Position numbers and translations under genes: made by a program
Notes under the pieces: generated by a model
What the model saw: only the letters and a program-made list of their open reading frames with translations
The model's database searches: none
What the model was told of the DNA's origin: nothing
Source of the DNA: a virus
Lineage: Duplodnaviria; Heunggongvirae; Uroviricota; Caudoviricetes
IMG/VR virus record: IMGVR_UViG_3300028888_000043
Coordinates: 233,756 to 297,755 of that record
Strand: one strand, 5' to 3'
DNA: 64,000 bases
Shown: positions 2,098-59,155 of the stretch, in pieces
How the letters are laid out: each line of letters begins with the position of its first letter
How positions within the stretch are numbered: the first letter of the stretch is position 1

Positions 2098-5000
2098 ATG
2101 AAGACTGTTGAAAGACATAAGAAGACTGATTTCGGTGATGTATGGTATGTAAATGCTATTGATGGAACTTATAGGTTCGCTGTGTACAAGTATGATGATG
2201 ACGATGATACCATTTATCTGTCTAATGTGTTTGTCAAGGAAGACAGTAGGAGACAGGGTTATGGTAATGAGATTCTTGCTGCTGCGGAAGATTATGCCAA
2301 TAGACTCGGTGCAAGTGTCATATGTTTGAAGGTGTTGAGTGGATCCGATGTACACAGGTGGTACAAGAGACATGGTTATGAAGACCTGGAAAAGGATGAG
2401 GAAGAAAGAGGATATATGTGGATGAAGAAGGAGTTGAAGAGAGTGAATGAATCAATTTGGGCAGATATACACCGCAGGAGTACAGGTGAACAGGTCAAGA
2501 AGGAAGATGAGATGACTCAAAAAGACCTTGATGACCTTGATAAGTATATTATGCATTTTGCAAGTGAAGTGGTATATGGTCAGGGTATGGGTGAAGAGGC
2601 TGCTACCCTTGACAATTTCTGTGACCATATAAGACAGGACTATGATGTCAATTCAGACAAGGACAAAATCATTGAATATGTAAAAAAAGTATGGTTTGAT
2701 GAATTGTGTGATGATGTGACCGGTACAATAGAACAGGTACAGAAAGAGTATAATCAGGATATGTATGAATCAGTCTGGGCTGACATACATAAGAGAAGTA
2801 ATGGTGAACAGGTAAGGAAAGAGGATGATGTAAATATTCTTGACCTTGAGGAATTTTATGAATATATTAAAAAACATTATAAGAACAAGGTTGAATATAT
2901 TGACCTGGAATCAATGGGTGGAGGAAATGGAGATGTTCTTGGAGTTGACATTACAGAAAACATTATATTATTCTACAAGCCCAAAAGGGGTCATATCCTA
3001 TTAAGTTGGTCAAAGGTAAAAATACCCATGCCTTTTTTTGATGAATTTGCTGACAGATTTAAGATAGAGAATCCAAATGCAATGAGGAGAATAATAACTG
3101 AAAATGATGGGAGTTGTACAAACAAGACATTCATAGATGTCATTGATTTCTTCCTTAATCATAAGGAAAGTTTGATTAATGAATCTGTCTGGGCTGACAT
3201 ACATAAGAGAAGTAATGGTGATGTTGTAAGAAAGGAAGATGATGTCAATCTTCTTGATAAAGATGGCTTATATGAATATCTGATATCACATTATAAACCA
3301 GTTGAAGGTATAGATATTAAAAGTTATATATTTTGTGGTAATAGTTATATAAATTTGTGTGTATTTACATATCCTACAGAGACAAGATATTCAATACTTT
3401 TAGATATATTGAATTTTAGGGTAAAAGTAAGAACTCCTTATATAAAAAGATGGCCTGCTAATCTTCTTGATATGATATACAAAAAATATAATAGAGAAGA
3501 TATTATTGATAAAAATAGAGACCATATGACTTTTATTACACCAAAAGAGGGTAAAGGAAACAATCAATTTTATATTGATTTTTTGGATATGATATTGAAT
3601 AATGTTGATAAACCATTGTTGAAGAAAGCAATCAATGAATCCATCTGGGTTGACATACATAAGAGAAGTAATGGTGAGGCCATCCGTAAGGAAGATGAGA
3701 ATCTGTCTGATGAAGATTGTGATTTCTTGGATGACTGCCTTATGGAGTTTGCTTCAAGGGTTGTATGGGATGGTGAGAAAGCCAGCCGGGAGAAATTATC
3801 CAATTGTATCAGGAAACAGTCTAATACATATAAGGACATTGATGTAGAAAAGGTCATAAAATATGTTGAAGACCATTGGGGTGAAGTATCTAAAGAACTT
3901 GATAGTCTTATTGCACAGGAAGAAAAAGAAAAGAGAAACGGTATGTATGAATCCGTTTGGAAAGATATGCACCAGAGAAGTAATGGTGACCAGGTAAGGA
4001 AAGAGGATGATTGCTTAATTGATGAAAATGAATTGGATCAGGATTCTTTAATATGCATCAGCAGGTATGCTATACTGTCAGTCTATTATGATAAGTATGA
4101 TGGAAAACCTGAAACTTTCTTAAAGTGTATTGAAAATTGGGATGACAATATATCTATCAGAGCTCAATTATATGATAAAAAGAAAGGTGAATATGTTGAT
4201 CCGGTAAAAGTGATACCTCCATTCATCAAGAAAAATTGGAAAACAGGTAAATCATATGAATCAGATGTCAATAAGAAAGTATCTGATGTGGAGGATGAAA
4301 TTAGAAAGACCGGATTTATAAAGAAACCAGGAGAGAGTATAAATGATACTTTATCAAAATGGTTTGATGATAATAAGGATCTTATTTCGGAAGAATATTG
4401 TGATTCTATTGAAGAATATGCCGAGACATATTATAGTGAAGGTGGTTCAAGGTTTACAGAAGTTGGTGTAGAAGAATGGTGGGATAGTTTGGAATATATT
4501 GATCAGGTAAAAATATATCAGGAACATATGAAAAACACAAATGAGTCTGTCTGGAAAGATATTCATCAGAGAAGTACAGGTGAGCAGGTAAGGAAAGAGG
4601 ATGAATTGCTGAATGACAAGGAAAACCAGATACTCAAACAGACTGCAAAGATGTTCAAGAATGCAGTTCGGGTATCAAAGTATAATGATGATGAAGAAGG
4701 TTATGATTACAGTGACTCCAAGGAGGATTTCATATATTATATTGAACAAAGGAAGGGAGAGATGTTCTGGACAGGTGTGAAGGAAGATGTATATGACAAA
4801 ATCATAGACTATGTGAACAAGAAGTGGACAGATGGTTGCAATGGTATAGATGAATTTATAAGTGAATATATATATGAGTGTGATGGCGTCCCTGGTGGAA
4901 TCACTCCCGCTGATGTTGGAGGTATGGGTGCAATCTCCTTCCCTGGTGCAGATGGTACTCCAGGTTCAGGAGACATCCCTATGCCGACAGGTCATGTCTA

Positions 5001-5181
5001 TCAACAGGTTGCCCCGTTTGGTATTTTCATCAGGGCAAAGAAAGGAAAGAAGAGAAAGAAGAAGTTCAGGAAGGAAGATGAACCTTGTGCTCATTCACCA
5101 AATGCGAAGGTCTATGACTATGTGGATGACTACCGTGAATATGTGGACAGGACATACAACAATATGGATAGAAGAAAGTAG
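2098..5181 (+). CDS. Multi-module protein: N-terminal GNAT acetyltransferase followed by six repeat-delimited modules (putative internal-head polyprotein)
   Basis: GNAT motif A FVKEDSRRQGYG..WYKRHGY; six copies of xNES(V/I)WxD(I/M)HxRS(N/T)GxxxxKED; ATG 2098 preferred over TTG 2092. Confidence 0.75.
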   Translation: MKTVERHKKTDFGDVWYVNAIDGTYRFAVYKYDDDDDTIYLSNVFVKEDSRRQGYGNEILAAAEDYANRLGASVICLKVLSGSDVHRWYKRHGYEDLEKDEEERGYMWMKKELKRVNESIWADIHRRSTGEQVKKEDEMTQKDLDDLDKYIMHFASEVVYGQGMGEEAATLDNFCDHIRQDYDVNSDKDKIIEYVKKVWFDELCDDVTGTIEQVQKEYNQDMYESVWADIHKRSNGEQVRKEDDVNILDLEEFYEYIKKHYKNKVEYIDLESMGGGNGDVLGVDITENIILFYKPKRGHILLSWSKVKIPMPFFDEFADRFKIENPNAMRRIITENDGSCTNKTFIDVIDFFLNHKESLINESVWADIHKRSNGDVVRKEDDVNLLDKDGLYEYLISHYKPVEGIDIKSYIFCGNSYINLCVFTYPTETRYSILLDILNFRVKVRTPYIKRWPANLLDMIYKKYNREDIIDKNRDHMTFITPKEGKGNNQFYIDFLDMILNNVDKPLLKKAINESIWVDIHKRSNGEAIRKEDENLSDEDCDFLDDCLMEFASRVVWDGEKASREKLSNCIRKQSNTYKDIDVEKVIKYVEDHWGEVSKELDSLIAQEEKEKRNGMYESVWKDMHQRSNGDQVRKEDDCLIDENELDQDSLICISRYAILSVYYDKYDGKPETFLKCIENWDDNISIRAQLYDKKKGEYVDPVKVIPPFIKKNWKTGKSYESDVNKKVSDVEDEIRKTGFIKKPGESINDTLSKWFDDNKDLISEEYCDSIEEYAETYYSEGGSRFTEVGVEEWWDSLEYIDQVKIYQEHMKNTNESVWKDIHQRSTGEQVRKEDELLNDKENQILKQTAKMFKNAVRVSKYNDDEEGYDYSDSKEDFIYYIEQRKGEMFWTGVKEDVYDKIIDYVNKKWTDGCNGIDEFISEYIYECDGVPGGITPADVGGMGAISFPGADGTPGSGDIPMPTGHVYQQVAPFGIFIRAKKGKKRKKKFRKEDEPCAHSPNAKVYDYVDDYREYVDRTYNNMDRRK
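2443..4605 (+). repeat. Six dispersed 69-nt/23-aa repeats
   Basis: Copies at 2443-2511, 2761-2829, 3175-3243, 3631-3699, 3943-4011, 4537-4605. Confidence 0.95.
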
Positions 5182-27687: not shown

Positions 27688-30612
27688 ATGGCTTTAGATG
27701 CAGAATTGATTAATTTGAAATCAGCTGGAACTTATCGCTTTGAGAGGGATAAGTCTGAAATTTCAAATGAAGTGGCAACTATCTCTAATTTGAGACTTGT
27801 TGCTGGTTTTAGCAAGACAGGTCCATTCAATACAGTCAAGTTGGTGACTTCTACTGCACAGTTCATCAAGTTGTATGGAAACATCGACCGTTCTCTTGAG
27901 AAGAAAGGTTCATTCTTCCATAGAAGTGCCTTGGTGGCTTTGAGTACCGGTCCTATCCTTTGCTTGAACCTCTTGAACCTTGACCCTGACAGAGACCAGG
28001 TTGTTGAGAAATCATTCTCAGTAAGTTCAGGTGAAGTGAATGCCAAGTCCGTGACCCTTCCTTTACAGTCACTCTATAACACAGACAAGTTCTGGTTTGC
28101 AAGTGACGAGGCATATCTTGATGCCATTGAGAAGAGTCTTGGTAATGGTAACACAACAAGTGGTATTAATGGTGAAAATACAAAAGAAGCATGGAATGAC
28201 AAAATCCTCCACTTCTCCAATGTAGGTAAGAAACCTGTTTCCATCTTGGTGAAAAAGGCAAGTGATTACTCTTCAAAGGGTTTCCAGCTCACACTCAATG
28301 AGTTCTATGGTGAAGGTAATGTTCCTGAATACCTCAATGGTACTTCATATGTAAGTGATTATCTTGTAGAGGTTTATGTTGTTGGTGGTGACTTCGGTCC
28401 TGCTCTCACAGGTAGTACATTCGCTTCTTCACTTGATTTGGATGATGACAATCTTGAAGGTAGCGGTGATGTCCTTACCAAGTATGACATCTATAAGGAT
28501 GAGACAACACAGCAGGAACTTCCTTACAAGAGGTTTGCTTCCGATATTGTTTACCAGTCATTCTATGATGAGAAGGGTTTCATCAGAGGTGTTGATGACT
28601 CAAATCTCGCCAAGTTCTTGAACCTTCCATCAGTTGACCTCCGTGCCAAGTATGTAGGTTCATTGATTCCTAACTTCGTTGACAAGCTTGGTAGGAACAT
28701 CTGGATCCAGAAGTTGGTCAATGATGACACCGATACCATCGGTCTTATCTGTACAGAGAATATCTCTCTCCTTGAGGATGTTGATTTTGATCATGACTTC
28801 ATTGATGAGAAGATTGACCTCATTGGACACAGTGTTTATAACAACCTTGACAATGAGGAAGAGAACACCATTCCTGATATGTCATTTGAGTTCCTCAGCT
28901 ACAAGTTTGACTATAAGGATGAACCACAGGAAGTCAAGGTTGGTCAGGATGTTTACAGAAGTACTCCTGATGCTAATACTGATGCAACAGAAGTTCCGGC
29001 AGAGCATCCATTTGCTTGGGTAAATGTTGAGAATGAGGAAGATATCATCTTTGCTGATGCCAGTTATTTGAAAGTTGGTGCAAAGGTTTATAAGAAAGCA
29101 GTTGAGGAACAGCAGCCTATGTTGTTGAGTGCATCTGCTGATTCTGATTCAGATGTTGATTATGATGAACTCACAGTTGATGAGATTGTGAAGGATGTCA
29201 ATCCATTGGTCACTGAAATTGTGTTTCTTGACAATGAGGACTTGTTCCTTGATGCAAACAATGAAAAGGCATACATCCCAAGGGACAATGAGGTTATCCT
29301 TGACAAGGCTGCCAATGTTGTTGTAGGTGACTATCTCCTTTCAGACTTCTATAATGATGATGAGGGTAAGAAGCATTCAAGACTCACAAGGGTTGTCGAG
29401 GTAAGGAATGTCTATGGTGAGAAGGCAAATGACAGACCTGGTAAGAAGGCTGGTATCCTTGTAATTTGTGCTGATAAGATTTCCAAGACTCGTGGTTCAC
29501 AGGACAATATTGTCATCAAGGTTACCCCTATCGACAAGGTTGCTGACCACTTCCAGTGGATTTGCCTCAATGGTTTCCAGGTAAGTAAGGAAGCAATGCC
29601 AGATGGTACCAACAGGCGTCAGAATGAGATTCTTGATATGATCCGTGAATATCCTGAATTCCCTTCAACCAAGTCCAACCTCTTCTCTGCGCTTATCGAC
29701 CGTGACTATGTACAGTGGAGATACCTGGTTGACACCTTTGGTCTCGGTATCGAGGAAGAGTGTAAGAAGGTTTACACCATCCTTTGCCAGGCCAGGAAGA
29801 GTGCATTCGCAATCGTGAACTGCCCGTCACAGCTTGACTTCAAGAAGAGTCATGATCCTTGGTTCACCAACAAGAATGGTGGTGTCGAGGTTGAATTCAT
29901 CGCCAAGGGTGGTGACCTTTCAAGGAATCCTTCCTTCCTCTTCACACTTCCTAAGATTGAGAACGGTGCATCCTGGGGTGCTTACTACTATCCATATTTG
30001 AGAATCACTGACCTCAGTGCTCCTAAGTCAGTACCTCCGGCAGCATATGTCTCAAATCTTTACATCCAGAAGTACAACAGAGGATTTGCTTGGTCAATCG
30101 TCGCTGGTCAGAAGAGGGGTGTCATCTCCGGTAACCAGGTTGTCGGTGTCGAGGCTACCCTTGTCCATGAGAACAGGGATTGGCTTGAACCAATGGGTAT
30201 CAATGCCATCATCTGGGAGCAGGGTGTCGGTGTCGAGGTTTATGGTAACAAGACTGCAAAGCAGACTCCTGTTTCTGCACTGTCTTCAATCCATGTCCGT
30301 GAGGCTGCTATCTACATCCAGGATAATGTTGAGACAATCCTCAGGAGATATGTCTTTGAGTTCAATACTGCACAGGCAAGAATGGAAATCAAGACATTGG
30401 TTGATGAGTTCCTTGAGAATATGAAGAACAATGGTGGTCTCTATGATTACAGGACTGTTATGGATACAACCAACAACACTCCTGAAGTCATTGACAACAA
30501 TATGGGTGTCATTGACATCTATGTTGAGATTGTCAGGGGTCTTGAAATCATTGCCCAGAGACTTACAATCCTCAGGACTGGTGCTATTGCTGCTGGTGGA
30601 TTTGATGAATAA
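27688..30612 (+). CDS. Tail sheath protein (T4 gp18-like) with large insertions
   Basis: SAGTYRFERDKS, GFSKTGPFN, VPPAAYVS, AGQKRG, GNKT, IHVRE, FEFNT, DTTNNTPEVIDNN. Confidence 0.93.
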   Translation: MALDAELINLKSAGTYRFERDKSEISNEVATISNLRLVAGFSKTGPFNTVKLVTSTAQFIKLYGNIDRSLEKKGSFFHRSALVALSTGPILCLNLLNLDPDRDQVVEKSFSVSSGEVNAKSVTLPLQSLYNTDKFWFASDEAYLDAIEKSLGNGNTTSGINGENTKEAWNDKILHFSNVGKKPVSILVKKASDYSSKGFQLTLNEFYGEGNVPEYLNGTSYVSDYLVEVYVVGGDFGPALTGSTFASSLDLDDDNLEGSGDVLTKYDIYKDETTQQELPYKRFASDIVYQSFYDEKGFIRGVDDSNLAKFLNLPSVDLRAKYVGSLIPNFVDKLGRNIWIQKLVNDDTDTIGLICTENISLLEDVDFDHDFIDEKIDLIGHSVYNNLDNEEENTIPDMSFEFLSYKFDYKDEPQEVKVGQDVYRSTPDANTDATEVPAEHPFAWVNVENEEDIIFADASYLKVGAKVYKKAVEEQQPMLLSASADSDSDVDYDELTVDEIVKDVNPLVTEIVFLDNEDLFLDANNEKAYIPRDNEVILDKAANVVVGDYLLSDFYNDDEGKKHSRLTRVVEVRNVYGEKANDRPGKKAGILVICADKISKTRGSQDNIVIKVTPIDKVADHFQWICLNGFQVSKEAMPDGTNRRQNEILDMIREYPEFPSTKSNLFSALIDRDYVQWRYLVDTFGLGIEEECKKVYTILCQARKSAFAIVNCPSQLDFKKSHDPWFTNKNGGVEVEFIAKGGDLSRNPSFLFTLPKIENGASWGAYYYPYLRITDLSAPKSVPPAAYVSNLYIQKYNRGFAWSIVAGQKRGVISGNQVVGVEATLVHENRDWLEPMGINAIIWEQGVGVEVYGNKTAKQTPVSALSSIHVREAAIYIQDNVETILRRYVFEFNTAQARMEIKTLVDEFLENMKNNGGLYDYRTVMDTTNNTPEVIDNNMGVIDIYVEIVRGLEIIAQRLTILRTGAIAAGGFDE

Positions 30613-39451: not shown

Positions 39452-41188
39452 ATGTTACAGAATGTTATTTTGAACGAGGCTGAGGTTTTGAAAACTTGGT
39501 CAGGTTTTATTACTGAGTCAACTGGCGTTACTGATCGTGCTAAATTGACTTGGATGAGTAAGTACTGCGCTTATCATGATATGAATGAGAAGCAGGCTCT
39601 CAATGAGAGTGCTCTTGGATATGCACATCTCAATCCTAATATGAATGTTGGTGGTATGGGCGCTGCCTACTTCCCAGGAGCAAATCCTAACAATGGTTAT
39701 GATGGTGTTCGTGGTTCAGGTGATAACCCATTCTCACTCCTTCCTCTTGCTGTTCAGGTCGCTGCACAGACTATCGCTCTTGACCTTGTTCCAGTAGTTC
39801 CTATGCAGGGACCTCTCGGAATCCTCCAGTACATGGACTATGTATACGAAGGTGGTAAGACCAATTTCCGTCCTCGTTTCGAGGGTGCAGACGAGTCAAA
39901 GACTGCTCCTCTTATGGTTAAGTTGACCCTTTCAACAGGTGATGCTAACTCTGATAGCGACATTGAGAATGCTCTCAAGTCAGATGCAGCTCTTGTAAAT
40001 GAAGATGCTATCAACCACGCACTCCGTTTCAAGGATCTCAAAGAGGCTTTCGTTCCTCATATGGATGCTATCAAGATTGGTGATTTCGAGCTCCTCTTTG
40101 TTGCTCTTGGCCGTATCGATGGTCGTCCTATCTTCCAGGTTAAGGAGAAGGCTTATCATGGTGGTATTATGAACGGTGGTGAGGGTGCTGCTGCTTCCCT
40201 CGCAGAGACTCTTCTTGTTGACGAGCCTGTTATCACTGGTGCTAATGGCGCACAGTTCTATGTTGTTGACATTGACACTGTAAAGGCACTTGAGGACTTC
40301 ATCCCTGGTTTCAGTGGTGTTGGTTTCAAGAATGGTGACCCTATGTCAGCAAAGGCTTATGACAGAGAGACTGGTGAATCCACTCCTTCAAACATCATGT
40401 CACTCAACACCTTCACCCTCAGTGTGAAGGCTAAGACCATCCAGGTCAAGGGTGCTATCACCCGTGAGCAGATCCAGGACCTCAAGGCCTACGGTATCGA
40501 CGCTGTTGCACAGGTCGAGGCTGAGCTTGTCAATGAGTTGACACAGCACATCAACCGTGAGCTCCTTGATGAAATCTTCGCTCTTGGTGATCAGAACCAT
40601 GTTGAGGCAGAGGCATTCGAGGGTATCAACCTCAATACTTACTTTGTTGTTGATCCTGCTGCTGCTGACATCGAAGGTTATGTTAAGTCTTATGTTGGTG
40701 GTGGTGCTGAGACTCTTGGTACCATCCAGAGGAGAATCATGTCTAAGATTCTTGCAGCTTCCAACCTCATCGCTCAGAGAGGTCGTAGAGGTGCTGGTAC
40801 CTTCGCTGTTTGCTCAGCCGCTATCGCTACCGCTCTCCAGGATTGCGCTGGTTTCGTAGCATATCCTCTTTCAAATACCATCAACCAGAACGCTGGTAGC
40901 CTCTATCCAGTAGGTGCTATTTCAGGTGTTTCTATCTATGTTGATCCTAACATGCCTTGGGCTTCAACAAAGGTTGTTGTTGGTAGGAAGGGTAAGGACA
41001 ATGAGCCTGGTCTCGTATTCATGCCTTACTTGATGGCTGACAAGCTCTCATATCCAGCAGAGGGTATGGAAGGTGCTCCTGTTACTTCTTTGAAGTCACG
41101 TTATGCAATCGTCCGTGCAGGTCATCATCCTCAGCTTTACTACTACTCATTCGACATCAAGCTTGGTGAAGGTGTTAGCCTCTACTAA
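39452..41188 (+). CDS. Major capsid protein (T4 gp23-like)
   Basis: DLVPVVPMQGPLG, EQIQDLKAYGIDA..ELVNEL, RGRRGAGTF, VVGRKG, FMPY, KSRYA; strongly biased codon usage. Confidence 0.95.
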   Translation: MLQNVILNEAEVLKTWSGFITESTGVTDRAKLTWMSKYCAYHDMNEKQALNESALGYAHLNPNMNVGGMGAAYFPGANPNNGYDGVRGSGDNPFSLLPLAVQVAAQTIALDLVPVVPMQGPLGILQYMDYVYEGGKTNFRPRFEGADESKTAPLMVKLTLSTGDANSDSDIENALKSDAALVNEDAINHALRFKDLKEAFVPHMDAIKIGDFELLFVALGRIDGRPIFQVKEKAYHGGIMNGGEGAAASLAETLLVDEPVITGANGAQFYVVDIDTVKALEDFIPGFSGVGFKNGDPMSAKAYDRETGESTPSNIMSLNTFTLSVKAKTIQVKGAITREQIQDLKAYGIDAVAQVEAELVNELTQHINRELLDEIFALGDQNHVEAEAFEGINLNTYFVVDPAAADIEGYVKSYVGGGAETLGTIQRRIMSKILAASNLIAQRGRRGAGTFAVCSAAIATALQDCAGFVAYPLSNTINQNAGSLYPVGAISGVSIYVDPNMPWASTKVVVGRKGKDNEPGLVFMPYLMADKLSYPAEGMEGAPVTSLKSRYAIVRAGHHPQLYYYSFDIKLGEGVSLY

Positions 41189-41278: not shown

Positions 41279-41446
41279 ATGAGCAAACAGGAAATAAACA
41301 TTGGAGACCTGGTGTCACTACCTATGTATATGGATGACCTGACCTATGTGGTTGAAGACATCAGAATGGATGATGATGGTGTTACAAGACTCTATAAGCT
41401 GGATGATACTATCTGGTATGAAGAGAAGTATCTGATGAAACAATAA
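41279..41446 (+). CDS. Small hypothetical protein (55 aa, not in ORF track)
   Basis: MSKQEINIGDLVSLP.. directly after the TTTGTTATATTT motif. Confidence 0.6.
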   Translation: MSKQEINIGDLVSLPMYMDDLTYVVEDIRMDDDGVTRLYKLDDTIWYEEKYLMKQ

Positions 41447-57980: not shown

Positions 57981-58844
57981 ATGGAGAAGTTAAGTAATTT
58001 GAATGAGGCGAGAAGGGTGTTCATATATAATCATAAGACTATGCCCTTTGAATTTGCAGAAATTTGTAAAATGGATAAGTTCCAGACTAAAATTGCACAA
58101 AGGACAGGAAAGCCTTGGAGAAATTCTGTTGAACTAAACAAGTTCCTTAAAAATGATTATGCCGGTGAACTCCCAAAGAGTCTTTTGGAATTGGCCAGGA
58201 GGTTAAAGGAACCGGACTATATCTGTGATTTGTTCTATATGAGTGAAGATGGGTATAAGAACATGTACCCGGAAGAGTATGCCAATTTCTTTGAGAACAA
58301 ACCACAGTGGGAGAAGGAGAAGATATTCCAGGCCGCCGATTATGGTGCAAGGACATTGTTTGAGTTTGAGCAGGATGTGAAGGCCGGAAATTTGATGGAG
58401 GATATGATTGCCTACCATACAAAAGGTATCCTTTCTCCTAATGAGAATGCATCCGGTAGAGGTTCTGATGTACTTTCAACATCCTGTGACTTCATATTCA
58501 GAAGTCCCGATGACAGTATAGAGCAACCTGTCGAGTTGAAGACCAAGTGGGTTTACAAACTGAAGGACAAGGAGATTGTACAGATGAGAGGTACGATAGA
58601 CACAATCCTTAAAGAAAAGGGTATGGTCTTGGCCATATACATCAAAATGAACAAGGCGATACTGATTGATCCCATTGGGAAACATTATAATATGACACCA
58701 GGGAAGATGAAAAATGGGAAAGACTGTGTGAACATAGAGGTTGACAAGAATGATATTGTTGATTTCAAGTTTTGGAATAAAGAAGACCTCAAAAAAATGA
58801 TGCATATGATTTTAGACCAGCACAATGCAAGAGAAACCAAGTAG
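57981..58844 (+). CDS. Putative PD-(D/E)XK endonuclease
   Basis: GNLMED..SCDFIF..PVELKTK. Confidence 0.55.
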   Translation: MEKLSNLNEARRVFIYNHKTMPFEFAEICKMDKFQTKIAQRTGKPWRNSVELNKFLKNDYAGELPKSLLELARRLKEPDYICDLFYMSEDGYKNMYPEEYANFFENKPQWEKEKIFQAADYGARTLFEFEQDVKAGNLMEDMIAYHTKGILSPNENASGRGSDVLSTSCDFIFRSPDDSIEQPVELKTKWVYKLKDKEIVQMRGTIDTILKEKGMVLAIYIKMNKAILIDPIGKHYNMTPGKMKNGKDCVNIEVDKNDIVDFKFWNKEDLKKMMHMILDQHNARETK

Positions 58845-58888
58845 GTTTCTCTTTTTGTTATATTTAGGTATATAAAATTATTGATATT

Positions 58889-59155
58889 ATGGATGATAAC
58901 AAGTTGGTAATCCTTATACCAAGCAGTTCCCATATAGAGGAGTTGAAGCAGAAGGGGATAGATATTGAGACCGAACTGGCAAGGGTTGTCTTTGACAATC
59001 TCAATCTCATCAAGCAGGGACAGAATCCAAAGACATTGGGTATCAGTGTGACCAGGGAACAGATGAATGACCTGGCCAAGTATGGTATTGATGGACCTGG
59101 ATACATCTCCGCTACCTTCAAGAAGGAACTGCATGAGAGACTGGTGAAAAAGTGA
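58889..59155 (+). CDS. Small protein similar to a segment of the major capsid protein
   Basis: VTREQMNDLAKYGID vs MCP ITREQIQDLKAYGID. Confidence 0.7.
   Translation: MDDNKLVILIPSSSHIEELKQKGIDIETELARVVFDNLNLIKQGQNPKTLGISVTREQMNDLAKYGIDGPGYISATFKKELHERLVKK

Follow-up and report, generated by a model that had tools for sequence, protein, structure and literature searches.

A conserved 88-amino-acid gene with a probable origin in the gene for the major capsid protein

The stretch of viral DNA analyzed here (the window: 64,000 nucleotides [nt], positions 233,756 to 297,755 of the Caudoviricetes record IMGVR_UViG_3300028888_000043) carries on its plus strand an open reading frame (ORF) of 88 amino acids (aa) at 58889..59155, stop codon included, whose product we call the mini-protein. 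We conclude, with a probability of roughly 0.9, that the mini-protein derives from the gp23-type major capsid protein (MCP) of the same phage and now stands alone as a truncated MCP paralogue in which a single element of about 40 residues occurs twice in tandem. Conservation of the ORF indicates that it is a real gene. Its homologues, which range from 25 to 100% identity, keep the same length and the same pattern, and at least 14 sequence clusters have intact frames of constant length in which the hydrophobic pattern is kept at identities down to 25%. The record from which the window was taken represents a 411.6-kb virus that is 94% complete (genome G000). A first-pass annotation of the window had described a small, non-late protein mimicking a segment of the MCP; the ORF and both peptide strings quoted there are present as claimed.

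The MCP gene is located at 39452..41188 on the plus strand and encodes a gp23-family protein of 578 aa (Pfam PF07068, 8e-36; phrog_28442, 2e-73), which is 46% identical to the MCP of the uncultured phage LR756500 and 33% identical to the MCPs of Lak megaphages (Prevotella). BLASTP aligns residues 37 to 88 of the mini-protein with MCP residues 317 to 370 (17/54 identical, pairwise E = 1e-6). The Smith-Waterman score of 74 was exceeded by none of 3,000 shuffled controls (Gumbel P = 4e-6), and a comparison of the mini-protein with all 63 proteins of the window gave E = 3e-5 for the MCP (about 2e-3 with all-versus-all correction). A profile of eight close homologues, searched against the 411.6-kb genome in all six frames, retrieved the mini-protein gene and the MCP segment (E = 5e-5) and nothing else; with the MCP as the query, the mini-protein gene was the sole non-self match in that genome. 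Profile-profile comparison with the MCP (P = 1.6e-5) pairs mini-protein residues 50 to 85 with MCP residues 332 to 367 in 36 ungapped columns. This parent segment (40445..40552, plus strand) comprises the I-domain linker 2/E-loop-equivalent return strand, the short P-domain helix, a turn, and the first half of the spine helix, and it is almost invariant across the phage clade. The MCP stretch that the first-pass annotation had quoted for its alignment (40433-40540) does correspond to MCP residues 328 to 363.

The likeness extends beyond the genome that carries the window. The family profile scores 18 bits on the phage's own MCP, 20.6 bits on the LR756500 MCP, 8 to 10 bits on the Lak-A2 MCP and about 4 bits on the LR745206 MCP; all other window proteins score at most 3.5 bits. 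In 11 of 11 further genomes of the clade the profile matched the MCP segment, and this was the sole match outside the family. A tblastn search of the mini-protein against 2.3 Gb of phage DNA returned weak matches, with the LR756500 MCP segment among the top three; because the number of these matches is at the chance level, this query does not produce inflated statistics. The positions that are invariant among close homologues (E57, Q58, L62, Y65, G66, I67, D68, and E80) are residues that match the MCP. Both the shuffled controls and the conservation of the shared residues therefore bear out the alignment proposed in the first-pass annotation.

Two further proteins connect the mini-protein to a second region of the MCP. 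In LR756500, the wider family profile retrieves the MCP segment again and, along with it, a 313-aa ORF (LR756500.1, record 247595-248530). This ORF matches the MCP of the window with a BLASTP E value of 5e-12 (shuffle P = 2e-11), the alignment being collinear between ORF residues 59 to 278 and MCP residues 281 to 538, and it matches phrog_28442, the PHROG family of the window MCP, at 3.8e-14. The second protein, P0017, is a 189-aa metagenomic sequence that contains both units and a C-terminal extension. It matches the 88-aa protein across both units (P = 4e-12) and the 313-aa ORF over 143 residues (BLASTP, 1e-11). Its extension, taken without the shared motif, matches the 313-aa ORF (P = 5e-7) and, in collinear order, the window MCP at residues 453 to 508 (P = 2.4e-4). 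No close relatives of P0017 were found in a word-indexed search. Because two separate collinear regions tie the family to the MCP, we take homology as shown, and the mini-protein belongs to the gp23 family by partial homology, that is, by descent from an MCP gene, on both direct and transitive evidence. The likeness that the first-pass annotation termed mimicry is thus statistically real; convergent mimicry, however, does not describe it, since bridging forms exist and the protein is a truncated, duplicated descendant of an MCP paralogue. The 313-aa ORF and P0017 appear to share this truncated paralogue lineage and contain the unit of the mini-protein, but they retain the C-terminal core motifs of the MCP (aligned to MCP residues 453 to 510), which the mini-protein does not. 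The 313-aa ORF has one unit, carries an unrelated N-terminal domain (phrog_9572), and belongs to a replication module.

Searches with the MCP and with three parts of the MCP as queries found no full-length MCP paralogue besides the MCP in the 411.6-kb genome, and it may be that the MCP itself forms the vertices or that another protein, diverged past detection, does so. The 88-aa protein does not match the Pfam gp23 model (PF07068) over the A and P domains. For the mini-protein and its neighbors, PADLOC and NCBIfam returned zero matches. No relative of the mini-protein was found in a scan of JGI metagenomes, and scans of IMG/VR with P0013, P0014, P0019, and P0017 as queries found no relatives either. 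An exhaustive profile search of 1.84 billion representative proteins retrieved further small members of the family.

Two tandem units and their predicted fold

The mini-protein consists of two units of similar layout. Unit 1 (aa 1 to 45; 58889..59023, plus strand) is a diverged copy of unit 2 and reads as an extended segment, a helix at residues 13 to 21, a G-I-D turn, and a helix at residues 26 to 42. Unit 2 (aa 46 to 88; 59024..59152, plus strand) reads as an extended segment, a helix at residues 56 to 64, a Y-G-I-D turn, and a helix at residues 69 to 86; the part of it encoded by 59036-59143 (aa 50 to 85) is the one that aligns without gaps to MCP residues 332 to 367. The second, degenerate copy that the first-pass annotation had seen upstream in the protein is real, as alignment of the N-terminal half with the C-terminal half by hhalign (P = 3e-6) pairs residues 12 to 40 with residues 55 to 83 without gaps. 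Unit 1 is the better conserved of the two, although it is less MCP-like. In a related genome (G003; 94% complete, MCP 92% identical), two 51-aa single-unit genes replace the two-unit gene, and their products match both halves of the mini-protein (P = 1e-5 to 1e-9) and the MCP in the same register (P = 1e-3 to 4e-3).

An AlphaFold2 (AF2) model of the monomer, made with an alignment of 14 sequences, has a predicted local distance difference test score (pLDDT) of 92 and a predicted template modeling score (pTM) of 0.73, and contains helices at residues 13 to 21, 26 to 42, 56 to 64, and 69 to 86, with an extended segment before each pair; with 8 sequences only, the model was uninformative (pLDDT, 52). 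In the model, both units together make up a single compact domain of four helices, and the single-unit relatives presumably form an equivalent domain as a homodimer. We infer that duplication or dimerization covers the hydrophobic face that, in the MCP, packs on the P-domain sheet. If the units do cover each other's hydrophobic face, this would explain how a fragment became an autonomous fold. The protein does not have a complete HK97 fold, being 88 aa long and modeled as a four-helix domain without a sheet. Searches with the AF2 model returned nothing from the PDB (Foldseek) and nothing significant among the BFVD viral structures, where the best-probability match was a gp24-type protein (E = 3.1). 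In a wide VIA-align search the best Z score was 3.4; four HK97 capsids are among the top 16 matches, but the matched ranges are non-contiguous, and we therefore discounted them. The ESM Atlas yielded no usable feature match.

The parent element in T4 gp23

The MCP was mapped by HMMER alignment to chain 5vf3_A of mature T4 gp23 (gp23*), in which a gp23 residue number equals the chain number plus 65; this offset reproduces A268, T275 (the A275T allele), D285, D287, G292, and V306/V307 as named in PMC9546572. On this map, mini-protein residues 50 to 85 correspond approximately to gp23 residues 266 to 303, which form the I-domain linker 2 (E-loop equivalent), a short, negatively charged P-domain helix, an H-G-M-D turn, and the first half of the spine helix. 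In T4, charge contacts around the quasi-threefold axes join the short helix to positively charged P-domain strands of neighboring capsomers, and these contacts are the same before and after expansion (PMC9546572). The head-length mutations A268V, A275T, D285V, and D287V/N cluster in this element, and G292S is a component of a triple mutant that bypasses gp31 (PMC9546572). All of these head-length positions, as well as that of G292S, fall within the stretch that aligns to the mini-protein.

Residues ~262 to 303 of T4 gp23 (PDB 5VF3 and 7VS5) are therefore the homologous element, with an equal order of secondary structures, and include A268, A275, D285, D287, and G292. Unlike gp23, the mini-protein is a free protein of 88 aa that contains the element twice and lacks the A domain, the P-domain sheet, the I domain, and the N-arm, so that no capsomer could be built from it. 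The analogy to Lit that the first-pass annotation drew, and with it Gol, does not carry over in its details; a different region of gp23 is involved, and the Gol peptide, which lies near gp23 residues 93 to 122, is outside the aligned segment.

The upstream junction has a motif of a different class from that of the MCP gene

On the plus strand, a terminator-like hairpin with a 10-bp stem (58829..58853) overlaps the stop codon of the gene upstream and runs into a TTTGTTATATTT motif (58854..58865), a candidate promoter element of a non-late class that is located 23 nt before the ATG of the mini-protein gene. The motif is enriched in the window (13 sites versus about 1 expected) and has a fixed spacing of about 23 nt before eight genes, which include the mini-protein gene, methyltransferase genes, and a small ORF at 41279 that heads an operon with a DnaQ-like exonuclease. 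Gene starts of this class are, for example, 7761, 12690, 41279, 45846, 51177, 55232, and 58889. The motif is often preceded by CTCTTTTT (a hairpin tail) and followed by GTATAA. A T4-late-like motif, [CT]ATAAATA, precedes about 20 genes, most of them large, at a distance of 15 to 36 nt (with starts at, for example, 2098, 5237, 16333, 17216, 22073, 27688, 35837, and 39452), and the MCP gene has it as AATAAATA at 23 nt. The large genes of the first 38 kb, most of which are outside the TTTGTTATATTT class, are presumed to be structural.

Across the genes of the window, the two classes of upstream motif are mutually exclusive. The mini-protein gene is thus behind a motif other than the late promoter, as the first-pass annotation had stated. 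Judging from these motifs, the gene probably starts its own transcription unit with a motif class that the MCP gene does not use, and expression earlier than that of the MCP is plausible.

The gene is accessory, fast-evolving, and located at the edge of a methylation island

The two-unit gene is found about 18 to 19 kb downstream of the MCP gene in four genomes (G000, G001, G002, and G004). It is absent from G007, which is 96% complete and has an MCP at 75% identity, and from Lak-A2 and LR745206. Between the genome studied here and G001, the MCPs are 96% identical and the parent segments are the same, while neighboring genes are 48 to 89% identical and the mini-proteins 55% identical. Because the parent segment is invariant in close relatives, no signal of covariation between it and the mini-protein is possible there. 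The architecture of the mini-protein also differs between relatives. On these comparisons of genomes, the gene is accessory and fast-evolving.

Immediately upstream on the plus strand is a fast-evolving ORF of 287 aa (57981..58844) that, by eye, resembles PD-(D/E)xK nucleases through a D..E-x-K pattern. Pfam, PHROGs, PADLOC, and NCBIfam assign it to no family. Its other copies are located at L001:9222-9941, L042:1820-2860 (minus strand), and L043:673-1428. These ORFs are of two types that are only very distantly related (E = 2e-5) but share the D...E-x-K pattern, and the type of this ORF does not track the type of the mini-protein. The nuclease-like ORF and the mini-protein gene are syntenic in G000, G001, G002, and G003, and G003 has a second copy of the mini-protein gene that lies apart from any nuclease-like ORF. 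In all carriers, the mini-protein gene comes after a nuclease-like ORF of this kind at the edge of a methylation island, and in the window it is among methyltransferase genes.

A proposed role as a competitive mimic of the MCP element

We hypothesize that the mini-protein acts as a competitive mimic of the MCP element, and, taking both kinds of possible target together, we consider the odds of this to be even or marginally better. A soluble protein that shows the contact element twice and is made from a promoter of a different class would bind whatever recognizes that surface on free MCP. Were the target a host sensor of unassembled capsid protein, the mini-protein would be an antagonist of capsid-triggered immunity, which we suggest only tentatively; were it the MCP itself, the mini-protein would control the timing of assembly or the size of the head. 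We lean slightly toward a host target, for three reasons: a sister lineage does without the gene, the mini-protein changes much faster than the MCP segment, which is invariant, and the surroundings of the gene are a methylation island of the counter-restriction kind. A role in assembly or head size is nearly as likely, because of the T4 data on the parent element. The accessory status, the fast evolution, and the methylation island are compatible with a counter-defense role and do not prove it.

MCPs often trigger the defense systems CapRel, Thoeris, and cyclic oligonucleotide-based antiphage signaling (CBASS) (reviewed in PMC13728456). A more specific version of the host-directed role, which we regard as rather doubtful, would be a trigger mimic: made from a non-late promoter and displaying a doubled surface mark of unassembled capsid protein, the mini-protein would occupy a host capsid-sensing receptor without activating it. 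In being small, accessory, fast-evolving, probably non-late, and located in a counter-defense neighborhood, it resembles phage proteins that block immunity, such as the DNA mimic Ocr and the Tad/Acb sponges (PMC13728456 and general background). In contrast to these proteins, a capsid-derived antagonist is without precedent in the literature searched, and binding of a sensor by the mini-protein is hypothetical.

Several observations weigh against descent from the MCP or against mimicry of it. The direct match between the mini-protein and the MCP is short (36 to 54 residues at 31 to 36% identity), the bridge to the second MCP region consists of P0017, a single metagenomic protein encoded on a contig of 2.8 kb, and one ORF of LR756500, and neither Pfam nor PHROGs gives anything for the 88-aa protein at E values up to 1. 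The core of the profile also scores on M56/BlaR1-type repeat proteins (E = 1e-6 to 4e-4). E57 and D68, which correspond to E273 and D285 of T4, are lost in distant members of the family. If the mini-protein faithfully mimicked an MCP segment that does not vary, its sequence would be expected to be under constraint, yet it diverges fast. Its confidently predicted, self-contained fold suggests that the hydrophobic faces of the units pack together, and the MCP-like surface may have been lost by exaptation. The 313-aa relative in LR756500 is found among replication and recombination genes and not in a counter-defense island. Finally, the motifs are the sole basis for placing expression of the mini-protein before that of the MCP.

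Alternative explanations

Four other accounts of the gene deserve consideration, the first of which is a modulator of head assembly. Such a protein would bind unassembled MCP where the short P-domain helix of a neighbor sits and would delay or steer the joining of capsomers, through chaperone-like holding, control of nucleation, or determination of head size. The properties of the parent element in T4 agree with this, since it makes inter-capsomer contacts and harbors the petite and giant head-length mutations as well as the gp31-bypass change, and a twofold display of the element would suit the bridging or capping of two subunits. A location away from the head genes has precedent, as the T4 helpers gp31 and gp40 are encoded outside the head gene cluster (PMC9546572 and general background). 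The gene is, however, dispensable, judging from its absence from the nearly complete G007 and from Lak-A2 and LR745206; the mini-protein has fallen to 55% identity while its presumed partner remains at 96% with an identical segment; and the gene is located 19 kb from the MCP gene, among methyltransferase genes and behind a motif unlike that of the late-type genes. We also found no family or fold match to assembly chaperones or scaffolds (analogues of gp31, gp40, or gp22), and the mini-protein is not conserved across phages that share the MCP. We consider an assembly modulator possible, at well below even odds. Somewhat less credible to us is exaptation, by which the protein would be a small helical domain whose function has nothing to do with the capsid. 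It could then be a partner, inhibitor, or regulator of the upstream nuclease-like ORF or another early protein-protein adaptor, and its capsid origin would be only historical. The confidently predicted autonomous fold and the better conservation of the less MCP-like unit 1 speak for this account, and the pairing with the nuclease-like ORF has persisted in four genomes despite fast evolution and two distant types of that ORF. Yet the mini-protein gene is set off from that ORF by a terminator-like hairpin and has a separate motif, the second copy in G003 is away from the nuclease-like ORF, the close kinship of the genomes makes synteny expected by descent, and no library ties either protein to a known system.

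A chance or convergent likeness, in which the units would belong to a generic strand-helix-turn-helix module, either a DNA binder of the ribbon-helix-helix (RHH) kind or a relative of M56-type repeats, is in our judgment very unlikely. The RHH unit has about 45 residues, as in the repressors Arc and CopG, and TraY is a tandem RHH protein. Each unit of the mini-protein likewise reads as strand, helix, G-turn, and helix at about this size, and both tandem and single-unit forms exist. The RHH regulator is unsupported as a candidate: Pfam gives no RHH or helix-turn-helix family at E values up to 1, the pLDDT-92 model has no strand according to DSSP and hence no beta-ribbon, the net charge is neutral to acidic (0 to -3), and unit 1 has a strand made up entirely of hydrophobic residues. 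The family profile found no RHH protein among PDB sequences, and there is no RHH chain among the 160 structural matches listed at Z ≥ 2 (48,161 chains searched), an absence that carries little weight. As for repeat proteins, the search of 1.84 billion proteins, which retrieved no gp23 MCP at an E value of 1e-3, did retrieve three long bacterial proteins, two of them of the M56/BlaR1 type, with 4 to 12 tandem repeats of the core pattern, each of about 30 residues. The C-terminal repeats of P0016 and P0020, which are M56/BlaR1-type membrane proteins, share with the mini-protein the core [ST]-x-[DE]-Q-L-x-x-L-A-[KR]-[YH]-G-[IV]-D, but they have neither the preceding strand nor a link to the C-terminal motifs of the MCP. 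A single M56 repeat reaches at most about 13 bits, compared with 18 to 21 bits for MCPs, and the significance of these matches arises from summing 4 to 12 repeats. We therefore reject M56-type repeats as true relatives, and the shared core is most likely a convergent helix-cap pattern. The bridging proteins, which link the family to a second, collinear region of the MCP, also argue against convergence. In P0016 and P0020 themselves, we observed 10 to 12 tandem helical repeats of about 30 residues with the pattern L-S-x-[DE]-Q-L-x-x-L-A-[KR]-[YH]-G-[VI]-D, and in P0020 one of them scores above the Pfam cut-off for Xp10_P7. The last account, a decaying and functionless remnant of an MCP paralogue, would fit the variable architecture and the patchy distribution of the gene, but intact frames of constant length in at least 14 clusters, a conserved hydrophobic pattern, covariation sufficient for an AF2 model with a pLDDT of 92, and a regulatory junction of its own make it the least probable of all, and we give it hardly any credence.

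Other capsid-like stretches in this genome and its relatives

An ORF of 65 aa outside the window (G000:C1, ~29257-29454; L016:1408-1605, plus strand) resembles, in its C-terminal half, the N-arm motif of the MCP (residues 98 to 130; 13/33 identical, pairwise E = 2e-6, genome-wide E = 0.023) and is a possible second capsid-derived mini-gene in the same genome. This ORF and its two tandem neighbors begin with the tag MSIW[AR]D[MI]H[RK]RSNG, which the 88-aa protein does not have. Two W-x-D-I-H-x-R-S-T-G strings that resemble the tag occur in the 1,027-aa ORF at 2098-5181 of the window. In the C-terminal part of this ORF, residues 939 to 972 (4912-5013) are similar to MCP residues 65 to 104 (39644-39763), a 40-residue stretch in the propeptide region; the shared sequence is rich in Gly and Pro (20/40 identical, pairwise E = 1e-6).

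In LR756500.1, a 209-aa ORF beside the 313-aa ORF (L008:706-1335, minus strand) contains a stretch similar to MCP residues 428 to 464 (K-I-L-A-A-S-N...; 11/37 identical, pairwise E = 5e-4) and may be another MCP-derived gene. Elsewhere in LR756500.1 (L014:7784-11184, minus strand), a homing-endonuclease gene interrupts the family-B DNA polymerase, which thus occupies two ORFs, and the junctions have intein-splicing motifs. The standard genetic code, the split genes, and the Lak-related MCP of G000 are consistent with the Jug gut jumbo phages of Bacteroides/Phocaeicola (PMC12880540).

A fragment of a capsid protein as an independent gene

Among known proteins, the closest in kind is the full-length vertex paralogue gp24 of T4 (PDB 1YUE), which is likewise a descendant of the MCP gene kept beside the MCP gene. 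The capsid paralogues known so far are whole subunits, as is gp24, which has the complete HK97 fold and forms part of the virion. The mini-protein, in contrast, is a 40-residue element present twice in a different fold context, and at 88 aa it falls far short of the ~400 or more residues of a gp24-like, full-length MCP paralogue. Our literature search found no account of decoys derived from a capsid, nor of MCP derivatives that are fragment-sized and free-standing. A free-standing gene that keeps one 40-residue capsid element, doubled into a fold of its own, is therefore undescribed in the literature searched.

The gene suggests a route by which a fragment can become an independent fold, with tandem duplication replacing the lost packing partner. 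If the mini-protein is indeed a trigger mimic, it would be the first counter-defense protein derived from a phage's own capsid gene. Because of the particular element that was retained from the MCP, the gene provides a testable hypothesis about how these phages may control the sizing or the misassembly of very large heads, or how they may blunt capsid-sensing immunity of their hosts.

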